Origin: a bacterium
GTDB lineage: Bacteria > Hydrothermota > 32-111
Direction of reading: 5' to 3'
DNA length: 64,000 nt
NCBI GenBank assembly: GCA_050239825.1
Contig: JBFXGO010000001.1
Span: 3,188-67,187, forward strand
Every line of letters begins with the position of its first letter. The stretch's first letter is position 1. The position numbers and the translations under genes are program-made. The notes beneath the pieces are model-generated. The model saw only the letters and a list, made by a program, of their open reading frames with translations. It ran no database searches and had not been told where the DNA came from. Shown in pieces: positions 24,594-34,589 of this stretch.

Positions 24594-25676
24594 ATGGTTT
24601 TGACTCAGATGAAAGAATTCAAAATAGGCGACCTCACAATAAAATTGCCGATAATTCAAGGCGGTATGGGAGTGGGAATCTCAATGTCAGGACTTGCTTC
24701 TGCGGTCGCCAATGAGGGCGGTGTTGGAGTAATCGCAACCGCAGGCATAGGCATGTTGGAGCCTGATTTTAATGAAAATTTTCTTGAAGCAAATAAGAGG
24801 GCACTTAAAAAAGAGATAGAGAAGGCGAGAGAGTTTTCAAAGGGAATAATTGGAGTCAATATAATGGTGGCTCTTTCAAATTATGCCGATTTGGTCAAGA
24901 CTTCAATACAGGAAAAGGTTGACATTATTTTTTCAGGAGCAGGACTGCCTCTGAATCTTCCGGAATTTTTAAAACAGAGCGGAAGCAGAAAAACAAAGCT
25001 TGTGCCTATTGTCTCTTCCGGGAGAGCCGCAGATTATATTTCCAAAAGATGGATTGACGAGTACAACTATCCTCCTGATGCCTTTGTTGTTGAAGGTCCT
25101 CTTGCAGGTGGGCATCTCGGATTTAAGAGAGAAAATATAGACAATCCTGCATTCGCTCTTGAAAATATTATGGTGGATGTGATAAGAGGGGCAAAACAGC
25201 TTGAAGAGAGATTCGGAAGGTCTTTCCCGGTTATTGTCGGAGGCGGAATATACACAGGAATGGACATAAAGAAATTTCTTCAGCTCGGTGCATCGGCAGT
25301 TCAGATGGCTACAAGATTCGTCACTACCAAAGAGTGCGACGCAGATGATAAATTCAAGCAGACATACATAGAGGCAAAGAAAGAAGACATCGTAATAATA
25401 AAGAGTCCCGTCGGTCTTCCTGGAAGGGCAATAAACAATAAGTTTATTGAAGACACAAACAACGGAGAGAGAAAACCATTCACCTGCCCTTACCACTGCA
25501 TAATAACATGCGACTACAAACAGTCGCCCTACTGCATCGCATTGGCTCTTTTGAATGCATTCAAGGGTAATTTTAAAAACGGTTTTGCATTCGCAGGCGC
25601 AAATGTCGGAAGAGCAAAGGAGATTGTTTCGGTGAAAGAACTTATAGAGACAATAAAAAAGGAATTTGAGTCGTAA
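24594..25676 (+). CDS. NAD(P)H-dependent flavin oxidoreductase, nitronate monooxygenase / FabK family.
   Basis: AAGGAG RBS 6 nt upstream of ATG 24594; this start is preferred over the longer ORF start at 24465. N-terminal PIIQGGMGVGIS...VANEGGVGVIA and TIM-barrel FMN motifs. Confidence 0.8.
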   Translation: MVLTQMKEFKIGDLTIKLPIIQGGMGVGISMSGLASAVANEGGVGVIATAGIGMLEPDFNENFLEANKRALKKEIEKAREFSKGIIGVNIMVALSNYADLVKTSIQEKVDIIFSGAGLPLNLPEFLKQSGSRKTKLVPIVSSGRAADYISKRWIDEYNYPPDAFVVEGPLAGGHLGFKRENIDNPAFALENIMVDVIRGAKQLEERFGRSFPVIVGGGIYTGMDIKKFLQLGASAVQMATRFVTTKECDADDKFKQTYIEAKKEDIVIIKSPVGLPGRAINNKFIEDTNNGERKPFTCPYHCIITCDYKQSPYCIALALLNAFKGNFKNGFAFAGANVGRAKEIVSVKELIETIKKEFES

Positions 25677-25704
25677 AATATTGATTTGGAAATAAGATTA
25701 ATAG

Positions 25705-25888
25705 GGCGGGTTCTTCCAATCCGAAGATATCCTTTTCATTAATATTTATGTCCGTTACCTAAATGGAAAAACGGTTACCCTAAAATCATTGCTCAATTAT
25801 ATTACCTCTGCCAATCCTTCGTTAATCTCTTTGGAGAACTCTCTTGTGAATGCTAATCCCTCTTTACACAACTTCCTTGACAAGTCTC
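25705..25888 (-). repeat. 190-bp repeat, copy 1. It is contiguous with the transposase-like fragment and is an inverted copy of 62422-62613.
   Basis: Reverse complement aligns to 62422-62613 at about 94% identity (12 mismatches by eye), including the shared taggGtaaccgtttttccatttaggtaacgg segment. Confidence 0.8.
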
Positions 25889-25896
25889 GAAAGTTT

Positions 25897-26136
25897 TCAT
25901 AGAGGTGTTCCAAGTCCCCGCTCAATATACCCATTAGCATAATCATCATTACTTGACAGATATATCTCTCGCTCACTCTTCATTATTCGGTTCAATGTCT
26001 CCTCCAATAACAACTGCAAAGAACTGTTGCTTAATTCATTAATGTCAGCTATAATATCTTTTGGTAGGGACTCTTTAGGGTTCATTGGGTTCCTCCATGT
26101 AAAAGTTTTTGTTCGCTTTTTGGAGAGAGTCTGCAT
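25897..26136 (-). pseudogene. Transposase-like N-terminal fragment, possibly IS256/mutator family; truncated and frameshifted.
   Basis: ...LEETLNRIMKSEREIYLSSNDDYANGYIERGLGTPL resembles the IS256 N-terminal region (E..HLG...RNGY..R.L.T). A +1 shift continues into ...DLSRKLCKEGLAF...EVI*. No DDE core follows. Confidence 0.35.
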
Positions 26137-26232
26137 ACTCTCTCCAAACCTTTTTTAGTCTCCTTCTCATTAATCTTATTATATTCCACTCCTAATATTT
26201 TTACACAACTTTTATTATACTCCCTATACGGC

Positions 26233-26503
26233 AAATGACTTTACAAAGATACTTGAAGATAAGAAGATAAAGATAAGCATGGACGGCAAGGGTCGTGCTG
26301 TGGATAATATCTTCATAGAGCGGTTGTGGAGAACAGTTAAATATGAGCATGCTTACATCTGGAGGTTTGATACGATTAAAGAGCTAAGAGAAGGACTAAA
26401 AGATTACTTTGATTACTATAACAATAAAAGAGAGCATCAATCATTAGGATACAAAACTCCATCTGAAGTTTATGGAGGTATTATAAATGTTCAAACAGCT
26501 TAA
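26233..26503 (+). pseudogene. IS3-family transposase (OrfB) C-terminal remnant.
   Basis: ...FTKILEDKKIKISMDGKGRAVDNIFIERLWRTVKYEHAY...YYNNKREHQSLGYKTPSEVY is the characteristic tail of the IS3 integrase-core domain. The DDE core and OrfA are missing. Confidence 0.75.
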
Positions 26504-26533
26504 TAATAAACACAATTTATCAAAATCTTGTGT

Positions 26534-26562
26534 CTTGACAGGAGAGACATTATCCAATAAAA
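26534..26562 (+). promoter_or_regulatory. Sigma70-type promoter TTGACA-N17-TAAAAT for the restriction-modification operon.
   Basis: Consensus -35 at 26534-26539 and -10 at 26557-26562, 25 nt upstream of the proposed ATG at 26588. Confidence 0.5.
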
Positions 26563-26587
26563 TATATATGTATATTTTAATTAAAAC

Positions 26588-28079
26588 TATGTCAAACAAT
26601 AATTCTAAATCAACAATAGGAAAAAACCTTAAAAAGATAAGGCCAAAAGAAGATGTTTCTCAGGATCGTTTATCCATGCTGACTGATTTGTCGCTGAATA
26701 CTATTGCTACAGTAGAATCTGGCTTGAATCCAAACCCAACTATTGAAACACCGACAAAAATTACCCAAGCATTAGATGTAAAAGTGGACGACCTAATTAA
26801 AAAAAATATGAGCCAAACTATTACTTCATTATTGAATAAAACAAAAATTGATCCCTCGTGGTCTTTTTCCGATAAAACAAGAAAAGATACGGCGTATATT
26901 ACGCATGGATATCATCGTTACCCCGCAAAATTTATTCCGCAAATAGTTTCTCGTTTGGCGGAAAAATATACGCGAATAGGTGATTTTATTGTTGATCCGT
27001 TCGGTGGTTGCGGAACAACCCTTGTTGAAGCAAAAGTTATGGGACGACCATCAATTGTCGTTGATATTAACCCCGTTGCTGTTTTGATTACGAAAGCAAA
27101 AATCACAGCAATTGATCCTGCTAAAATTGAAAAGGAATTTACAACTTTTCAAAAGAGATTGGAAACTTACAGCGAAAAAACAAAAGTAAAAGCCCCTAAA
27201 CACGAAAGAATTGACTATTGGTTTAAGCCAGAAGAAAAAAGAAAACTTGCTTTTATTCTTGCCGAGATTTCAAAAATAAAAGATCAAGATGTCCAAGATT
27301 TCTTTTTCTGCGGGTTTTCAAACATTCTCAAAAATTGCTCAATCTGGCTACAAAAAAGCAATAAACCAACGAGAGATTTTGATAAAAAGCCTTCAGAGCC
27401 GATTAAAGCATTTTTGAAACAAATAAAAATGATGTTGCGTGGTAATGCACGATTATTTGAATTGTTATCAGAAAAAGGTTATTTAAAAATTCCGAGCAAG
27501 GTGATTTGCACGGATGCAAGAACAATTCCGGCAAAAGATAATAGCGTTAGTTTGATTGTTACTTCGCCTCCTTATGTAACCTCTTACGAATACGCCGATT
27601 TACACCAGCTCACTGCTTTATGGTTAGAATATACCATAGATTTGAGCGACTTCCGAAAACGATTTATTGGCACTTCATATCACAACAAAAAAGATTTAAC
27701 TCTTAATAGCGTGATTGCAGAAAATATCAGAAAAAAATTGTTAGAAAAAGACAAAAAAACTGCCGAGGAAGTTTCAACATACTTTAGCGAAATGAATCAG
27801 GTATTTGTTGAAATGAAAAGAATATTAAAGAAAGGCGGGAAAACCTGTATTGTTATTGGCAATACGAGCTTAAAGGGCGTTGAAATACTTAATGCGGAGG
27901 TTTTTGTTGAGCAATTACAAAACTTGGGATTAAAAATCGCTGATATTATCAAAAGAGAAATTCCGTCAAAAAATTTGCCGTCCGTTCGAGACGAAAAGAC
28001 GGGTAAATTTGCGAGCATAAATGATAAAAATAGAGTTTCTGTTTATCCAACAGAATACATTTTGATAATGGAAAAATAA
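26588..28079 (+). CDS. DNA amino-methyltransferase (N6-adenine or N4-cytosine) with a fused N-terminal XRE-family HTH domain.
   Basis: HTH IGKNLKKIRPKEDVSQDRLSMLTDLSLNTIATVESG. AdoMet motif I HRYPAKFIPQIVSRL...GDFIVDPFGGCGTT. Catalytic motif IV IVTSPPY about 185 aa downstream. The ORF-track start at 26487 is rejected (it lies upstream of the promoter). Confidence 0.8.
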
Positions 28080-28083
28080 AACT

Positions 28084-28752
28084 ATGACTATAGACGACCT
28101 TATCAAAATTTACGAAACAAAAAAGAAAAAATATGGCATAGAAGCATATCGTCATATTTCAAATGTTTTGAAAGAAGCAAAGGAATTGCACAAAAAAGAT
28201 TTTACAGGTGATGATCATGAGCAATCATGGCGCGCTTTCAAGGGTAAAAATTTAGAAAAAATGATTGAATATATTATAACAGACGAGGTTAATGCTCTTG
28301 GGTTACAAGTAATAAATGGCAATAGCCTTGAAAGGACGAATGGATCAAACCTTTCAAAAGAGTTGAGTTTAGTTAAAAGAAATTTGATTGTTGATTATGG
28401 CGAGTTCGGCTCGCATTTGCCCGATGTAGATTTGATTATTTACGACCCAAACACAAGCAAAGTTGTCGCTGTTTTATCAAGCAAAGTAACTTTACGGGAA
28501 AGAATAGCCCAAACTGGTTATTGGAAAATAAAACTTGCCTCCGACGAAGCGACAAAACATATCAAAGTTTATTTCGTAACGCCTGATGAGGACGGAACGC
28601 TAACGATTAAAACACCTGCGAAGAAAGGACGAGCTATTGTTGAAGTAGACACAGACGGCAGTTATGTTTTGAGTGAGACGGACATTGAGGAAAGTAATAA
28701 AGTAAAAATGTTTGACAAGTTTATCGATGACTTGAAAAAGCTATTGAAGTAA
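28084..28752 (+). CDS. Putative type II restriction endonuclease (222 aa).
   Basis: Sandwiched between two MTase genes with 4-nt and 3-nt spacers. Acidic/lysine cluster ...YGEFGSHLPDVDLIIYDPNTSKVVAVLSSK... is compatible with a PD-(D/E)xK-like site. No other homology recognised. Confidence 0.45.
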   Translation: MTIDDLIKIYETKKKKYGIEAYRHISNVLKEAKELHKKDFTGDDHEQSWRAFKGKNLEKMIEYIITDEVNALGLQVINGNSLERTNGSNLSKELSLVKRNLIVDYGEFGSHLPDVDLIIYDPNTSKVVAVLSSKVTLRERIAQTGYWKIKLASDEATKHIKVYFVTPDEDGTLTIKTPAKKGRAIVEVDTDGSYVLSETDIEESNKVKMFDKFIDDLKKLLK

Positions 28753-28755
28753 TTT

Positions 28756-29847
28756 ATGACCCAGATCAAGAATGATAACCGAATGGGGTGGATCCGCAAT
28801 TTAGAGAAATTGAGCAAAAAAGAAACTGATAGCTATTTTGTTGAATATGAGATTGCGACAGAGTGCCATATAGCAGGTATACTGGATTACGGTACCGGTA
28901 TTATTTTGTGTGGAGGGTTAACCATAGAGAAAGATGAGAATGGGCTTTATCATTATTTACTAAAAGTAAGGTATGCGGGCGTAAAAGAACCTTATTACAA
29001 TAATAAAGCGAATAAAAAAGGATATTATTTTAAGGACGGCATACTTGGTGAACTCCTTTCCATTTTTTCTTTATACTTTCAATGTCGTTTTTATTTGATA
29101 GCAACTTTTACTGGAGAATTAACCAATCATGGATTAAGAATAAAAACAGGAAATAAGTTCATTTATAGAGCGTGTAATCCAGTCATTCACCCACAAATTT
29201 TTTCTTCCAAGAGTAGAGACCTTGCGATTGGATTATCCGATTTTTTAGATACAATAAAATCATTAGACACGAAGTATCATCAACAGTTTATTTTGACATG
29301 TTTTCACTATGCCCAATCATTAAAAGAAATAGGCGTTGACAGCGAAATGGTATTTATCAGGTTGGTATCCGCAATTGAATCAATTTCAAAATTTATCAAA
29401 TTGGATAAAAAAGTTGATTTATTTAATGGAAAAACTTTTGAAAATATTGTAAAGAGCGATGCTCTTTCAAAAACAGAAACGGAAGAATTAAAGAAAACTT
29501 TTGAGAATAGAAAATCAAAAGCAAGATTTATTACTTTTATTGAAAAATACTCAAGCGGATATTTTAAGGGCGGGAATTACAAAGCAAAACACTGCAAAAT
29601 CTCTAAAAAGCAGCTGCCAAAAGTTTTGCGGACTATTTATGACGCTCGCTCAGCTTATTTACATAACGGCGAGCCAATGTATTTAAGCCAGCCAATGTAT
29701 GGTGGAGAAAAATGGGACACTGATCCGAATATAGGCATGATAGTAGACAATAGGTCTTTCTCCGTTTCGCAAAAATTACCATTTACCTATTTTTTTGAAG
29801 GTTTAGTTAGACAATGTTTGTTGAATTTCTTGAAGCAAAAAAAATAA
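28756..29847 (+). CDS. Uncharacterised protein (363 aa) with a C-terminal Rx4H motif; possible HEPN/Abi-like nuclease.
   Basis: ...LRTIYDARSAYLHNGEP... contains R-x4-H. No MTase or PD-(D/E)xK motif. Embedded in the RM operon. Confidence 0.4.
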   Translation: MTQIKNDNRMGWIRNLEKLSKKETDSYFVEYEIATECHIAGILDYGTGIILCGGLTIEKDENGLYHYLLKVRYAGVKEPYYNNKANKKGYYFKDGILGELLSIFSLYFQCRFYLIATFTGELTNHGLRIKTGNKFIYRACNPVIHPQIFSSKSRDLAIGLSDFLDTIKSLDTKYHQQFILTCFHYAQSLKEIGVDSEMVFIRLVSAIESISKFIKLDKKVDLFNGKTFENIVKSDALSKTETEELKKTFENRKSKARFITFIEKYSSGYFKGGNYKAKHCKISKKQLPKVLRTIYDARSAYLHNGEPMYLSQPMYGGEKWDTDPNIGMIVDNRSFSVSQKLPFTYFFEGLVRQCLLNFLKQKK

Positions 29848-29848
29848 T

Positions 29849-30532
29849 ATGGATAAACTTCAAATAGAATCAACAACACTTTGGGATTTTCCGAGACAAA
29901 ATTATGGTGACAAGCCACATGGAAACAATAAATACAATGGCGTAACGCCGGCTTTTGTCATTTGGAATTTACTCCAAAGATATACCAAAGAGGGTGATTT
30001 AGTTGTCGATCCGATGTGCGGGAGCGGAACAACAATTGATGTTGCAAAAGAATTGAACCGAAAAGTAATCGGCTATGATTTGAATATTGTTAGGTCCGAT
30101 GTAATTAAAAACGATTCTCGGAAAATCCCGCTTGCGGACAATTCTGTTGATTTTGTTTTTATTGATTCACCATACTCCGATAATATTAATTATTCTGACA
30201 ACAAGGAATGTATCGGTAAAATTTCTTGCGAGAAAACAGAATTTTATGATGAATTAGAAAAAACCGCTTCCGAAATTGCAAGAATTTTGAAGCCAGGAAA
30301 AGTTATGGGCTGGGTTATTGCTGATCAATGGATTAAAAAGAAATTTACGGCTGTTGGATTTTTGATGTGGCAAAGATTGGAAAAACATTTTGAGCCTATG
30401 GATATTGTTTGTTTAACAAGACACAATCAAACGTCAAACACTGGAGTTTGGCACAACAGAGCAAGGCAGTTTAATTTTTATTTAAGAGGTTTTAAATATT
30501 TGTTTATAATGAGGAAGCCAGAAAATAAATAG
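29849..30532 (+). CDS. Small DNA amino-methyltransferase (227 aa).
   Basis: Motif I context NGVTPAFVIWNLLQRYTKEGDLVVDPMCGSGTT (pfam01555-like). Motif IV FIDSPY about 50 aa later. Then RILKPGKVMGWVI. Confidence 0.75.
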   Translation: MDKLQIESTTLWDFPRQNYGDKPHGNNKYNGVTPAFVIWNLLQRYTKEGDLVVDPMCGSGTTIDVAKELNRKVIGYDLNIVRSDVIKNDSRKIPLADNSVDFVFIDSPYSDNINYSDNKECIGKISCEKTEFYDELEKTASEIARILKPGKVMGWVIADQWIKKKFTAVGFLMWQRLEKHFEPMDIVCLTRHNQTSNTGVWHNRARQFNFYLRGFKYLFIMRKPENK

Positions 30533-30945
30533 GCCGTATTTCGCAAAGCGAAATGCGCCGCCAAAAGAGATGTTGCCCCACCACTGAAAGAACTGCTATC
30601 TCGGTGCTTTACTTTTTACTATTATAATTGTTTTGGAATATTCCAAAACGCGCATTATATAATGAATTTGAAAGAAAAAGCGATGAAATTTCAATTCAAT
30701 ATAATTTCCTTAAAATTACTTAAAGTTTAACAAAAATATTTTGATTTCAACCATACCCTCCCAAATACTCATCAATAGAGGATGTTTGAGCAGTTTGGCA
30801 AAATAAAAAAGTAAAGTACCGATATTAACATTTTTTAACAGGGGCTATAGAATGCTAATTTTGACTGAGATTCAGAGAAATGATAAAATAAATACAATCA
30901 GTAGATAAAGAATTATTTGTAATTGCCTGATAAGGAACAAAAGAA

Positions 30946-31862
30946 ATGGCAAAAGCAATAGATACAAAAAATGTCACAAAAAATTCGGTAAATTAAAAGC
31001 TTTGATAATGTCTCTATCAGTATTGATAAGGGTGAAATCTACGGGTTTTTGGGTCTAAACGTAGCGGGGAAGACAACAACAATCAGAATGCTTTTGGGAA
31101 TGATGAAACCGAACGGAGGCACTGCATATATTAACGGCAAAGAAGTTAATGCAGGCAATCATAAATTATGGAAAGACATCAGATACTTGGTTGAAATGCC
31201 TTATTCGTATCCGGAGCTGAGTGTTTATGAGAATCTCGAATCAGTAAGACGGTTAAGGGGAATCAGCGACAAAAAGGTTATAGATTTTGTAATAAAGAAA
31301 CTTCATCTTACTGAATATAGAGATAAGTATGCAAATAAACTCTCTCTTGGAAACGCACAGAGATTGGGTATAGCAAAAGCGATAATGCATAATCCGAGCA
31401 TACTGTTTTTTGATGAGCCTTCAAATGGGCTTGACCCTGCAGGCATAGTTGAGATACGGGAGCTTTTGATTGATTTGGCAGAGAATCACGGTGTAACAAT
31501 TTTTATTTCAAGCCATATACTCGGTGAAATTTCCAAATTTGCTTCCCGAATCGGAATTATAAACAACGGCAAACTTATTCAAGAGGCTGATTCACAAAAA
31601 ATCAATATATTGAATCAAAAAAAAACTTATAGTGGATGTTATTGACAGAGAGGGTGCTTTGAAAACCCTTGCGGATAAAGGATTCTCCTGCTCAAAATCC
31701 TCTGAAGGATTCTTAGAAATAAGCGACGAGGATGTCATTAATCATCCGGAAAAAATATCGACTATGCTTGTGGAGTCAGGGTTCCCTCCAATTTTGCTGA
31801 GACAAAAAGAAGAGGATTTGGAGTCATATTTTTTCAATGTAATCAAAGGAGAAGAGAGATAA
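30946..31862 (+). pseudogene. ABC transporter ATP-binding protein, disrupted by three frameshifts.
   Basis: AAGGA RBS. The ATG 30946 frame gives MAKAIDTKNVTK then a stop. Walker A GLNVAGKTTT, ABC signature LSLGNAQRL and Walker B ILFFDEP lie in the next frame (31049-31645). The C-terminal domain sits in a third frame (31632-31862). Shifts are at the A6 run 30978-30983, at ttg|ata 31002-31007 and at the A9 run 31617-31625. Confidence 0.75.
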
Positions 31863-31872
31863 AATAAAAAAT

Positions 31873-32645
31873 TTGTCTTTGATGATGTGGATTGAATTTT
31901 TCAAATTGAAAAAATTGAAAGTATTTGTTGGGTCGATGATATTCTTTGCATTTATAGCTCTAATGCTCGGATTGCTTATTTTTATATCCAAGCATCCTCA
32001 GATAATGGGCTCATCTGATATTTTATATGCTAAGCCGTCAGTATTTATAAATGCGGATTGGCCATTTTTTTTGAGAATAATGATACAATTTATTTCAATG
32101 ATGGGAATACTCGGCACGGATATGCAACCAGTTGGATATTCGGCAGAGAATATTCTGATAAAACAGCAAAGGATATTCTTGCAACGCCGATTTCAAGGGC
32201 TAATATATTTATAGCAAAAATGATTGTAGTCTTACTCTGGTGCATCCTTCTGGTGATAGTATTTTTCATTTGCAGTATGATTGTCGGTTTTGCGACAAAT
32301 CTTGGAGGATTGTCCAATCCGTTTTTTATTCATTAAATAAAGTTATTTTCAATTTCAGAATTGCTGACTATATGCCTGTCAACCCCTGTGGCTTTTTTGG
32401 CAAGTTACAGCAGAGGATATCTTCTCCCTTTGGGTTTTCTTATATTTATTTTAATGTTTTCCAAATTGATCGGGGTCGGACTATCCGTACTGGCGCCATA
32501 TTTCCCATGGGCGGTTCCCGGCTTATATGGAACTTCTGTCGGCAATTCACAATTGGGTTTTGTGTCTTATTTTATATTCTTTCTGACATGCTTGTTGGGA
32601 TTTTTGGCAACAATATTGTGGTGGCGATATGCTAACCAGACTTAA
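31873..32645 (+). pseudogene. ABC-2 family permease, fragmented by one or more frameshifts and an in-frame stop.
   Basis: The N-terminal TM segment (31873-) and the conserved GNTRHGYATSWIFGREYSDKTAKDILATPISRANIFIAK (32058-) are in different frames, with a T8 run near 32063. There is an in-frame TAA at 32334-32336, and the frame then continues open to 32645. Confidence 0.65.
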
Positions 32646-32703
32646 AGATGAATTTTAATTATCAATTTTGTTTATTCTTAGTTGAAAGCTATTTGAATAA
32701 TGT

Positions 32704-33888
32704 TCATTTTTTGAGGCGGGATATATAGAAAGATTCTATCTGCTTTGCCACATTCTCCCATGAGTATTTATCTGCAAGAGTGAATCCGTTTTTTATGCAC
32801 TTTTCTCTTAATGCTTTATCATCTGCAAGCTGAATTATCTTTTTTACAATGTCATCTTCGTCTCCTGTTTCAAACAATAAACCATTTTCATTATCCTTAA
32901 CAACCTGAGAGTATCCGTGAATATTGGATGCAACTACGGGAGTTCCTGAAGCCATAGCTTCAAGAAGAACTATTCCGAACGACTCACCGCCTAAAGCGGG
33001 GGAGCAGTATATGTCTGCTGATTTATAGTATGACGGAATCTCTCCGAAAGGAATGAAACCCTTGAATTCTACAGAATTCTCTATTTTTAAGTGCTTAGCC
33101 AAATTGCGTGCTTCACTGTCAAGAGGACCTTTCCCTGCTATAACAAGCTGTGCTTTGGGTTTCAAAGTTAAAAGTTTTTTAAACGCATTTATCATTACAA
33201 TAACGCCTTTTCTTTCGTCAAGTCTTCCGAGAAAAAGAACTCTCGGGTATCCCTCTTCCAAATCATCTCTTTCTTTAACATTCGGATTGAACACTTCAGT
33301 ATCCACTCCTGCAGGGATAATTGCATACTCTCCGGGGAAATACGGTTCCATTGCTTTTTTAGCTGTTTCAGATATTGCAAAAAGCCCGTTGATTTTTTTT
33401 AGATATTTTCCGTACAGAAATTTTGCAATTGACGCTCCTGTTGAATTGAAAGAGAAACCGGCATTGAGAAATGCCGCTATATTGACTGATTTGGAATAGT
33501 GAAGGGCGAAGAATGAAATTGAAGGAGGAAATGGTCCGTTAAGATGAATTATATCATAATGATTATTATGAAGCAGATTCTTTACTTTTGCAGGTATATC
33601 AAGCCCGAAAGACATTGTCGCGTATGACTTGTTCATGGGTATCATCAAAACTCTACCGAAGCGGATTACATGGTCATCTTCAATTTCATTTTTGTAATGG
33701 GTTGTAAGTATTGTGACTCTGTTTCCAAATTTTCTCAGGTATTTTGCCAGATAGAATGTGTACTCAGATATGCCTGACGGATATGGATAGTACGGGTCAG
33801 AGACGAGAAGAATATCAAGATTTTTCATAATTAAAAAATTATATGGTATAAATGCGAAAAGTAAAGCAAAAAATAGAGAGTCGAACAT
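32704..33888 (-). CDS. Glycosyltransferase family 4.
   Basis: C-terminal GT4 signature ...CSPALGGESFGIVLLEAMASGTPVVASNIHGYSQVV. An alternative start at 33828 (MKNLDILLVSDPYYP) is plausible and would clear the divergent promoter. Confidence 0.8.
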   Translation of the reverse strand: MFDSLFFALLFAFIPYNFLIMKNLDILLVSDPYYPYPSGISEYTFYLAKYLRKFGNRVTILTTHYKNEIEDDHVIRFGRVLMIPMNKSYATMSFGLDIPAKVKNLLHNNHYDIIHLNGPFPPSISFFALHYSKSVNIAAFLNAGFSFNSTGASIAKFLYGKYLKKINGLFAISETAKKAMEPYFPGEYAIIPAGVDTEVFNPNVKERDDLEEGYPRVLFLGRLDERKGVIVMINAFKKLLTLKPKAQLVIAGKGPLDSEARNLAKHLKIENSVEFKGFIPFGEIPSYYKSADIYCSPALGGESFGIVLLEAMASGTPVVASNIHGYSQVVKDNENGLLFETGDEDDIVKKIIQLADDKALREKCIKNGFTLADKYSWENVAKQIESFYISRLKK

Positions 33889-33890
33889 AA

Positions 33891-33918
33891 TTGACTATTC
33901 ATTTATATTTGATATAAT
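33891..33918 (+). promoter_or_regulatory. Sigma70-type promoter TTGACT-N16-TATAAT, likely giving a leaderless or near-leaderless J-domain protein transcript.
   Basis: -35 at 33891-33896 and -10 at 33913-33918. The ATG at 33927 is only 8-9 nt after the -10 and no RBS is present. Confidence 0.4.
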
Positions 33919-33926
33919 AATCAATT

Positions 33927-34589
33927 ATGAAAAACTACTATGAGATACTCAATGTTCCGCAGGAGGCGACAAAAGCGGAGATAAAGAAATCATATATAAT
34001 GCTTGCCAAAAGATACCATCCCGACAAAATAAATCAGGAGGGCGGTGAAGACAATGGAATGTTCGCCGATATTTCTGAAGCATACGAGGTATTGTCCGAC
34101 GACAACAAGAGGGCGGATTTTGACTCAAATCTGAAAAAATACAATGAAGGCATTGATGTCGAGCAAAAGAAGAGGGATGGAAAATTTGAACAGCTTCTTC
34201 TTAGGGCGAAGAAAAGGATACGGGAACGGAGGTTTTTGGAATCAATAGAGTACTTTCAGAAGCTTGAAAATAATTATAAATACACAAACAGACAGCCGAC
34301 TGCGGAGTTTTATTCTTATTACGGTTACGCATTATTCATGAGCGGAAAAGACAAAAAAAACGGAATTGATTACATGGACAAGGCAGTTACAAAAACAATG
34401 TTCTCCGATGAAGATTACATGACGAATCTCGCAGAGGCATACTACATGAACAATGAAAAGAAAAAAGCGGATGAACTGATAAAAAATGTATTCAGCGTCA
34501 ATTCAAAGAGCAAAAAGGCATACTTGCTTAGAAAAAAATATGCGCCAAAGAAGAAGAGTATTTTAGACATAATTTTCAGGAGGAAATAA
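33927..34589 (+). CDS. J-domain (DnaJ-like) protein with a TPR-like C-terminal region.
   Basis: [32 protein letters not shown] contains the HPD motif. Confidence 0.8.

Follow-up and report, generated by a model that had tools for sequence, protein, structure and literature searches.

Gene X is an open reading frame (ORF) of 363 amino acids (aa) in a 64,000-nucleotide (nt) stretch of a contig from the bacterial phylum Hydrothermota (JBFXGO010000001.1), the whole of which is here called the window. According to the ORF listing it runs on the forward strand from an ATG at 28756 to a stop codon ending at 29847, exactly as described in an earlier first-pass annotation made by a model from the DNA letters, and it is embedded in a restriction-modification (RM) operon. 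In this study, we describe a large family of X homologues with an almost invariant Rx4H motif, a predicted topology compatible with HEPN ribonucleases (RNases) and stand-alone genomic contexts, and we show that X is a clean insertion in a cargo slot of its operon. We consider it probable that X is an anti-phage RNase of the HEPN type which works by itself as a single protein, the RNase and the anti-phage role both being predicted ones. More tentatively, we propose as a realistic possibility that X founds a new family of compact immune RNases, each a single HEPN protein with an N-terminal sensor not seen before, horizontally spread in uncultured phyla (Patescibacteria, Acidobacteriota, Omnitrophota, Nitrospirota and others), and that the junction at which it lies is an operon-internal exchange slot for defence cargo.

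The Rx4H motif is conserved in a large protein family

Homologues of X are numerous. A 90%-clustered database contains 288 of them, mostly 50-90% identical and about 355-390 aa long, and a profile search of 1.84 billion representatives retrieved 625 clusters (50% identity) at E≤1e-3 and 268 at E≤1e-10. All genome matches are metagenome-assembled genomes of uncultured lineages. Family members are found in Patescibacteria classes, Acidobacteriota, Omnitrophota, Nitrospira, Actinomycetota, Latescibacterota and one gammaproteobacterium, and their identity of 45-65% across phyla points to horizontal spread. No relatives were found by tblastn in a plasmid collection or by a pattern scan of viral contigs, so neither collection gives evidence of X as a phage- or plasmid-borne gene. 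About 16 of 207 members (P0064, P0073, P0088 and others; loci L008-L010) carry a C-terminal GGCT/AIG2 (gamma-glutamylcyclotransferase) domain after the HEPN-like domain, and one distant member (P0191/P0155) has a transglutaminase-like domain. Fusion partners of these kinds are seen in conflict systems, and we count them in favour of a defence role. A literature search for the X family or for HEPN-GGCT fusions found nothing specific.

The first-pass annotation had drawn attention to an R-x4-H motif near the C-terminus of X. The motif is present as R298-S-A-Y-L-H303 (29647..29664, forward strand) in the stretch ...YDARSAYLHNGEP..., and is the predicted catalytic site. Shuffling rules out that it is significant on its own, as Rx4H occurs in 27% of shuffled X sequences and Rx4-6H in 62%. 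Its weight comes from conservation in the family and not from presence in one sequence. In an alignment of 208 full-length homologues, 23-91% identical to X, R298, S299 and H303 are each retained in 207; the arginine and histidine, on whose conservation the HEPN reading had been made to depend, are kept almost throughout. Y185 (206/208), E208 (203/208), Y295, G305 (203/208) and P342 (208/208) complete the set of best conserved positions, and K212 is found in 108 homologues. A second motif of X, R138-x6-H145, is conserved at neither R138 nor H145 in this alignment.

These residues can be read against the rules established for HEPN domains, in which the Rx4-6H motif closes core helix 3 and precedes the loop that leads to helix 4, an insert separates helices 2 and 3, the residue after the motif arginine is polar (mostly N, D or H), and helix 2 carries a conserved acidic residue, often as Ex3[KR] (PMC3710099). 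The residue following the arginine of X is the polar S299, present in all but one of the aligned homologues, and helix 2 contains E208-x3-K212 (29377..29391, forward strand) with a conserved acidic residue that follows the Ex3[KR] rule and is of the kind expected close to a HEPN active site.

The predicted topology of the C-terminal domain is compatible with HEPN

An AlphaFold2 model of X, made with the family alignment, is a confident one, with a predicted local distance difference test (pLDDT) value of 84.6 and a predicted template modelling score (pTM) of 0.87. Residues 1-135 form an alpha+beta domain in the model. We delimit this N-terminal domain as aa 1-150 (28756..29205, forward strand; conserved E32, G41, Y90, E99 and R111), and propose that it may act as a sensor or regulatory domain. 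Searches with this domain gave no significant match. A helical, HEPN-like domain follows from about residue 160 to residue 363 (29233..29844, forward strand). The long alpha-rich region which had been described in front of the motif is thus real from about residue 160 onwards and does not extend to residues 1-135.

DSSP assignment of the modelled C-terminal domain gives helices H1 (172-191), H2 (196-211), H3 (284-304) and H4 (344-362), with an insert at 212-283 and a loop carrying a beta-hairpin between H3 and H4. R298...H303 is located at the end of H3 and E208-x3-K212 at the end of H2. With the motif at the end of H3, the insert between H2 and H3 and the acidic E208 in H2, the layout of the model is compatible with the canonical HEPN layout of PMC3710099. 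Structure prediction, which the first-pass annotation had named as a check, therefore gave a motif position, an acidic residue and a helix order that suit a HEPN domain; a Foldseek search of the model against the PDB returned a best E of only 1.2.

Sequence links to ApeA

X has no match at threshold to Pfam, NCBIfam, PADLOC or PDB sequences, in agreement with the earlier statement that it is devoid of methyltransferase, PD-(D/E)xK, HNH and ATPase motifs. When 66 members of the X family were scanned one by one, in sets of 34 and 32, HEPN_Apea (PF18739) was the sole recurring Pfam signal, seen below threshold in 4 of the 34 and 5 of the 32, and no competing family appeared among the Pfam matches of the 66. 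Abi_2 (E 0.0024) and AbiU each gave a weak match in one member, the PADLOC Cas13-ApeA model a weak match at 0.0039 in 2 of the 34, and ApeA_NTD1 a match with E 0.078 in 1 of the 32. One member is labelled 'Apea-like HEPN' by JGI. A PDB profile search with distant members of the family gave no match.

For direct comparison we took the sequence of the validated Escherichia coli ApeA (Ec1ApeA, 601 aa) from RefSeq, starting from a fragment in a preprint supplement; RefSeq names it 'HEPN family anti-phage protein ApeA', and the Pfam entries for ApeA are PF18739 and PF18862. BLASTP of X against Ec1ApeA was not significant. Hhalign produced one alignment, in which IY-x-A-RS-x-YLH of X lies over IY-x-L-RNK-I-x-H of ApeA and the two Rx4H motifs are in register, the motif of ApeA being RNKITH (R521-H526). 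Ec1ApeA itself has no match to Pfam, and because of this Pfam is a weak arbiter of ApeA membership. It also indicates that the families compared here are very divergent. With a non-significant BLASTP result and a marginal hhalign result we do not claim X as a demonstrable member of ApeA; within the RNase-defence reading, which we hold to be probable, X resembles an ApeA-type protein in architecture and logic, its membership being undemonstrated.

Several observations weigh against an RNase of the HEPN class. No sequence model is significant, the best PF18739 match having an E of 0.0024 and lying below the gathering score; the ApeA models of PADLOC and NCBIfam do not match X; and the hhalign alignment with ApeA is itself non-significant (E 0.02-0.05, probability 1-2%). 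The motif arginine of X is followed by Ser, where N, D or H are commoner in HEPN domains. Moreover, several X homologues lie among housekeeping genes (his operon, ribosomal genes), a context which the first-pass annotation had taken to speak against its reading, and they lie there as obvious small insertions. Of the earlier HEPN reading, the invariance of R and H, the placement of the motif, E208 and the sub-threshold Apea-like signal stand on the favourable side and the want of a significant profile match on the other. Profile comparison, which it had proposed as a check, gave no match in the PDB search, and the in-register alignment to E. coli ApeA was non-significant.

X occupies a cargo slot of a widespread type II cassette

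X lies in a run of co-directional, tightly packed genes in the order rve_3 remnant, ORF with a helix-turn-helix (HTH) and a methyltransferase domain (C-M1), BsaWI-family endonuclease (R), X and a 227-aa methyltransferase (M2). R is a type II restriction endonuclease of 222 aa (28084..28752, forward strand; PF18643, E 3.7e-34) and M2 an N4/N6 DNA methyltransferase (29849..30532, forward strand; PF01555, E 2.2e-24). X starts 3 nt after the stop codon of R and ends 1 nt before M2, which bears out the earlier description of X as tightly coupled and embedded in an RM operon.

The canonical cassette has the order C (70-aa HTH protein), M1 (423 aa), R (222 aa) and M2 (225 aa), with R and M2 1 nt apart. 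Compared with it, the window has an additional ORF-sized segment of about 1.09 kb at the R-M2 junction (28754..29848, forward strand). In blastn against an X-less cassette (L045), window 26801-28753 corresponds to L045 745-2697 (83%) and window 29842-30516 to L045 2691-3368 (82%). As the flanks of the window are contiguous in L045, X is a clean ORF-sized insertion, with a TAA-n-ATG junction re-formed on both sides. Repeats, att-like sites and insertion sequence (IS) ends were searched for around the insertion and none was convincing. X may have arrived by recombination between the conserved R and M2 flanks. M2 was considered as a partner of X and ruled out, since it directly follows R in X-less cassettes.

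Among 80 metagenomic cassettes, R and M2 are found in order in 68. The distance between them is at most 21 nt in 28 cassettes, 53 nt in one, 227-285 nt in 13 and 440-2877 nt in 26. The larger inserts consist of co-oriented, tightly packed ORFs. When these are pooled with the small ones of the 227-285-nt class, they form 23 sequence clusters; X is present in three inserts. Identified cargo comprises OLD-family nucleases (AAA_15 plus OLD TOPRIM), other AAA_15/21 ATPases, HNH proteins and a trypsin-like protease. It also includes a pair of an AAA_21 ATPase and an HNH protein, a domain combination known from Septu. No Pfam match was obtained for about a dozen further cargo families, and unannotated occupants have ORFs of 309+218, 327, 250+116, 843, 211-229 and 77-92 aa. 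Many alternative ORFs occupy the same position, and thus the R-M2 junction is a slot for alternative defence cargo of which X is one occupant. This sharing of a slot is the strongest contextual evidence for X as a defence gene. The link of X to RM is therefore one of hitch-hiking or co-expression, modular and not an obligate functional pairing. A limited literature search found no description of such a slot in BsaWI-family cassettes.

The cassette itself is abundant. Homologues of R number 3983 at E≤1e-10, and the best 120 of these 3983 are 88-95% identical, which suggests that the whole C-M1-R-M2 cassette has spread horizontally, very recently and rampantly. The same best 120 (P0291-P0410) are mostly on Patescibacteria-type contigs. 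In X-less cassettes unannotated genes of 181 aa (L045 3378-3923) and 231 aa (L047 3347-4042) start 2 nt after M2, so that cargo may have a further variable position at the cassette's 3' end.

Homologues of X mostly stand alone

The neighbourhoods of X homologues were inspected in about 30 contexts, including 18 further genome loci. A homologue 81% identical to X lies in the same RM cassette beside a serine recombinase, and the X-containing cassette recurs at 76% nucleotide identity. Elsewhere the settings are diverse. One homologue stands alone, with a recombinase and a type I RM locus nearby, one follows a small (68-aa) Xre-type HTH gene near smpB (L007), and one that is fused to GGCT shares its island with AbiE, a deaminase and an IS element. 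Another directly follows an MmeI-type RM gene and is inserted among ribosomal genes, another is inserted together with HicAB inside a his operon, some homologues stand alone, and one comes after a KAP NTPase. At the 18 loci the flanking genes include those for type I S and M subunits, an EcoRI-type methylase and RhuM, Eco57I, GmrSD, integrases, serine recombinases, HepT/MNT, a TIR protein, DUF4209, DUF5677 and DUF6119. At L024 (4831-8343) the X homologue has an EcoRI-type methylase gene on one side and a RhuM-family gene on the other, and at L004 (8568-13101) another adjoins a type I hsdM-hsdS pair, after which comes an AAA_13/SMC-like ATPase gene; both are further RM loci carrying accessory conflict genes.

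Across these contexts X homologues have no constant neighbour, and most stand alone in defence or mobile regions without an adjacent methyltransferase. The first-pass annotation had asked whether homologues always accompany RM genes. They do not, X being in RM operons here and in close relatives only. The lack of a recurring partner fits a self-contained defence or conflict gene and speaks against an obligate antitoxin or a methyltransferase immunity factor.

Proposed mechanism and alternative explanations

As a self-contained HEPN RNase, X would act as follows. Two copies would pair via their C-terminal HEPN domains, and R298 and H303 of each copy, with S299 and E208, would form a composite metal-independent RNase site. 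The protein would stay inactive until an infection cue is sensed, either by the conserved N-terminal alpha+beta domain or by a pocket lying between the two domains. Activated X would then cut RNA (tRNA, mRNA or phage RNA) and block phage replication, and it would work without an antitoxin or a methyltransferase partner. In the window X is cargo of the R-M2 junction; it would be co-transcribed with C-M1-R-M2, and DNA restriction would be complemented by a second layer of defence directed at RNA.

Alternatively, X could be a latent RNase held off by R, M1 or M2 in the manner of PrrC and freed once an anti-restriction factor from a phage has put the RM system out of action, an idea close to the composite module of the first-pass annotation. 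The tight embedding in the operon with gaps of 3 nt and 1 nt, the recurrence of the X-bearing cassette at 76% nucleotide identity, the homologues adjoining MmeI, type I and EcoRI-type methylase genes, and the precedent of PrrC together with a general proposal for RM-linked HEPN genes (PMC3710099) all agree with it. However, most X homologues have no adjacent RM gene, and the RM partners that are present belong to unrelated types. Most cassette copies function without X, the slot also holds autonomous systems (OLD nuclease, ATPase plus HNH pair), and X does not have an ABC-ATPase domain of the PrrC/RloC kind. We therefore regard a guard of this type as unlikely. Its more specific form, a module in which an adjacent methyltransferase serves as immunity factor, finds no support in the homologues, most of which have neither a methyltransferase nor any constant neighbour, nor in the thousands of cassettes without X or the unrelated cargo in the same slot.

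Non-catalytic HEPN domains exist and characteristically lose Rx4-6H (PMC3710099). X might accordingly be no nuclease, its R, S and H residues serving to bind a ligand or RNA in a regulatory or non-defence protein which travels on mobile DNA. In X, though, the motif is the most conserved feature, and the patchy spread across phyla at 45-65% identity, the defence-island contexts and the slot shared with defence genes indicate a function in conflict. The existence of non-catalytic members (PMC3710099), the want of a significant match to any catalytic family and the housekeeping neighbourhoods of some homologues leave this explanation a small chance, and we consider it decidedly unlikely.

A third explanation, with a smaller chance still, is that X is the toxin of a toxin-antitoxin (TA) pair, whose antitoxin would be a small protein, for example the product of an upstream HTH gene, or an RNA, as is the case for HEPN systems of the AbiF type. 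TA systems commonly contain HEPN toxins (PMC3710099), and single homologues are preceded by the 68-aa Xre-type HTH gene at L007, followed by HicAB or preceded by HepT. But no neighbour recurs across the contexts, the gaps of 3 nt and 1 nt in the window leave no intergenic room for an RNA antitoxin, and X is not flanked by repeats; the conserved adjacent antitoxin gene or RNA repeat array that marks a TA toxin is not seen with X. Finally, X could be a second restriction endonuclease or DNA nuclease paired with M2, to which it is adjacent and coupled, and type II endonucleases often have no recognisable motifs, but X has neither the constant cognate methyltransferase nor the nuclease fold of such an enzyme, and this explanation is highly improbable.

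Other features of the cassette and its surroundings

C-M1 is a fusion of an HTH controller and an N4/N6 methyltransferase (26589..28079, forward strand; HTH at aa 45-106 plus N6_N4_Mtase, Pfam). Its ORF is open from 26487, and the ATG at 26589 is the probable start. Relatives encode C (70 aa) and M1 (423 aa) separately, and the stop codon of C is absent from the window at an A-run near 26800. In this region (about 26795-26810) relatives read ...DDLIKK, a stop codon and then MNKD..., and the window reads ...DDLIKKNMSQT.... The one-frame state could be a real fusion, a phase-variable homopolymer or a sequencing error. A candidate operon promoter of the sigma-70-like form TTGACA-17-TAAAAT (26535..26563, forward strand; 11/12 positions, a consensus match only) is located just upstream of the C-M1 ORF; it is the best match of its kind at this place, and sigma-70-like sites in total are as frequent as expected from shuffling.

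The region from about 25500 to 34000 is a low-GC island (0.32-0.36 versus 0.40-0.47 in the flanks), consistent with horizontally acquired DNA, and contains a transposase remnant, the RM cassette with X, broken ATP-binding cassette (ABC) transporter genes and a gene for a glycosyltransferase. Immediately at the start of the cassette is a 74-aa fragment of an integrase core (rve_3; 26279-26503), and upstream of it are a 79-aa ORF (25897-26136, reverse strand) and a terminator-like hairpin with a 12-bp stem (26119-26148). Fragment, ORF and hairpin are probably remnants of an IS element beside the cassette. At 31049-32645 a gene for an ABC-transporter ATP-binding protein without its N-terminus (198 aa, TTG start) is followed by several short overlapping ORFs with hydrophobic products, an arrangement suggestive of an ABC-2 type exporter operon that has decayed or been frameshifted. 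Two pairs of inverted repeats, 26543-26557/31001-31015 (15 nt, 93%) and 25640-25661/31000-31021 (22 nt, 82%), bracket the whole cassette and have AGAGACAnTA in common; they may be chance matches or the ends of a mobile unit.

Novelty and comparison with known systems

HEPN RNases in RM operons are already established as a second line of defence, and single-protein HEPN defence is now experimentally established; X extends this theme and overturns nothing. Of the first-pass interpretation, the HEPN-like character is borne out and a link to defence is probable, and its idea of a defence component not described before is plausible. New are a large unmodelled family of about 360 aa with a distinct N-terminal domain, abundant in uncultured phyla, and an operon-internal slot in a widespread type II cassette. 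If X is an active HEPN RNase, its family would be a compact (about 360 aa) sensor-effector family for which Pfam, NCBIfam and PADLOC have no model, and with its N-terminal domain there would be a new sensor of infection to decipher. Members abound in lineages about whose immune repertoire little is known, the candidate phyla radiation among them. Whatever the chemistry of X, the R-M2 slot offers a handle for finding defence genes, a kind of 'guilt by embedding', and if the slot reading is true, its unannotated occupants are a ready list of new anti-phage genes. The slot may also show how RM cassettes spread and keep accessory immunity genes. One possibility is that cargo lies ahead of a methyltransferase which a cell may require if it is to withstand its own endonuclease.

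ApeA was reportedly described by Gao and colleagues in 2020 as a single-gene HEPN anti-phage system. It is a predicted homodimer (AlphaFold 3) with a conserved sensing pocket, and its defence is lost with R521A (bioRxiv 10.64898/2026.03.20.713152). Like ApeA, X is a single protein without an obligate partner gene and combines a non-catalytic N-terminal domain with a C-terminal HEPN domain (in X a predicted one) carrying one Rx4H motif, which in both is preceded by I-Y-x-x (IYDARSAYLH in X, IYKVRNKITH in ApeA). X differs in its length of 363 aa, compared with the architecture of about 600 aa of ApeA (467 aa in a 'minimal' homologue), in its N-terminal alpha+beta domain of about 150 aa, which has no demonstrable relation to ApeA_NTD1 (PF18862), and in the Ser after the motif arginine, where ApeA has Asn.

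A catalogue of 2013 lists at least 16 clades of HEPN RNases that are embedded in RM operons or linked to them, and HEPN genes of the ApeA/BMEI1217 family are embedded in RM operons of epsilonproteobacteria (PMC3710099). The anticodon nucleases PrrC and RloC share with X the position inside an RM operon and, if X is the predicted RNase, an RNA-directed back-up to DNA restriction. They have an N-terminal ABC-ATPase fused to HEPN, derive their latency from the RM partner and are obligately embedded in RM operons, of type I. X, in contrast, has no ATPase domain, its cassette is of type II and most of its homologues are found away from RM genes.

DARNA, an anticodon nuclease consisting of a single HEPN protein, is activated by single-stranded DNA bound to the single-stranded-DNA-binding protein SSB (bioRxiv 10.64898/2026.02.22.705581). 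DARNA (PD-T7-3), HepS and PD-T4-2 are one-protein HEPN RNases in which a second domain senses the cue and no antitoxin is involved (bioRxiv 10.64898/2026.02.22.705581), and X is predicted to follow the same logic. In DARNA, unlike X, the HEPN domain comes first and a large helical domain forms the C-terminal part, the protein assembles into dodecamers, and no sequence similarity to X was detected.

The R-M2 slot, finally, resembles defence hotspots and islands (PMC3710099) in offering a fixed position between conserved genes to many alternative defence genes, and its conserved flanks could serve as homology arms for exchange. Unlike such hotspots, it lies inside a type II RM operon, and its cargo is always co-oriented and packed within a few nucleotides.

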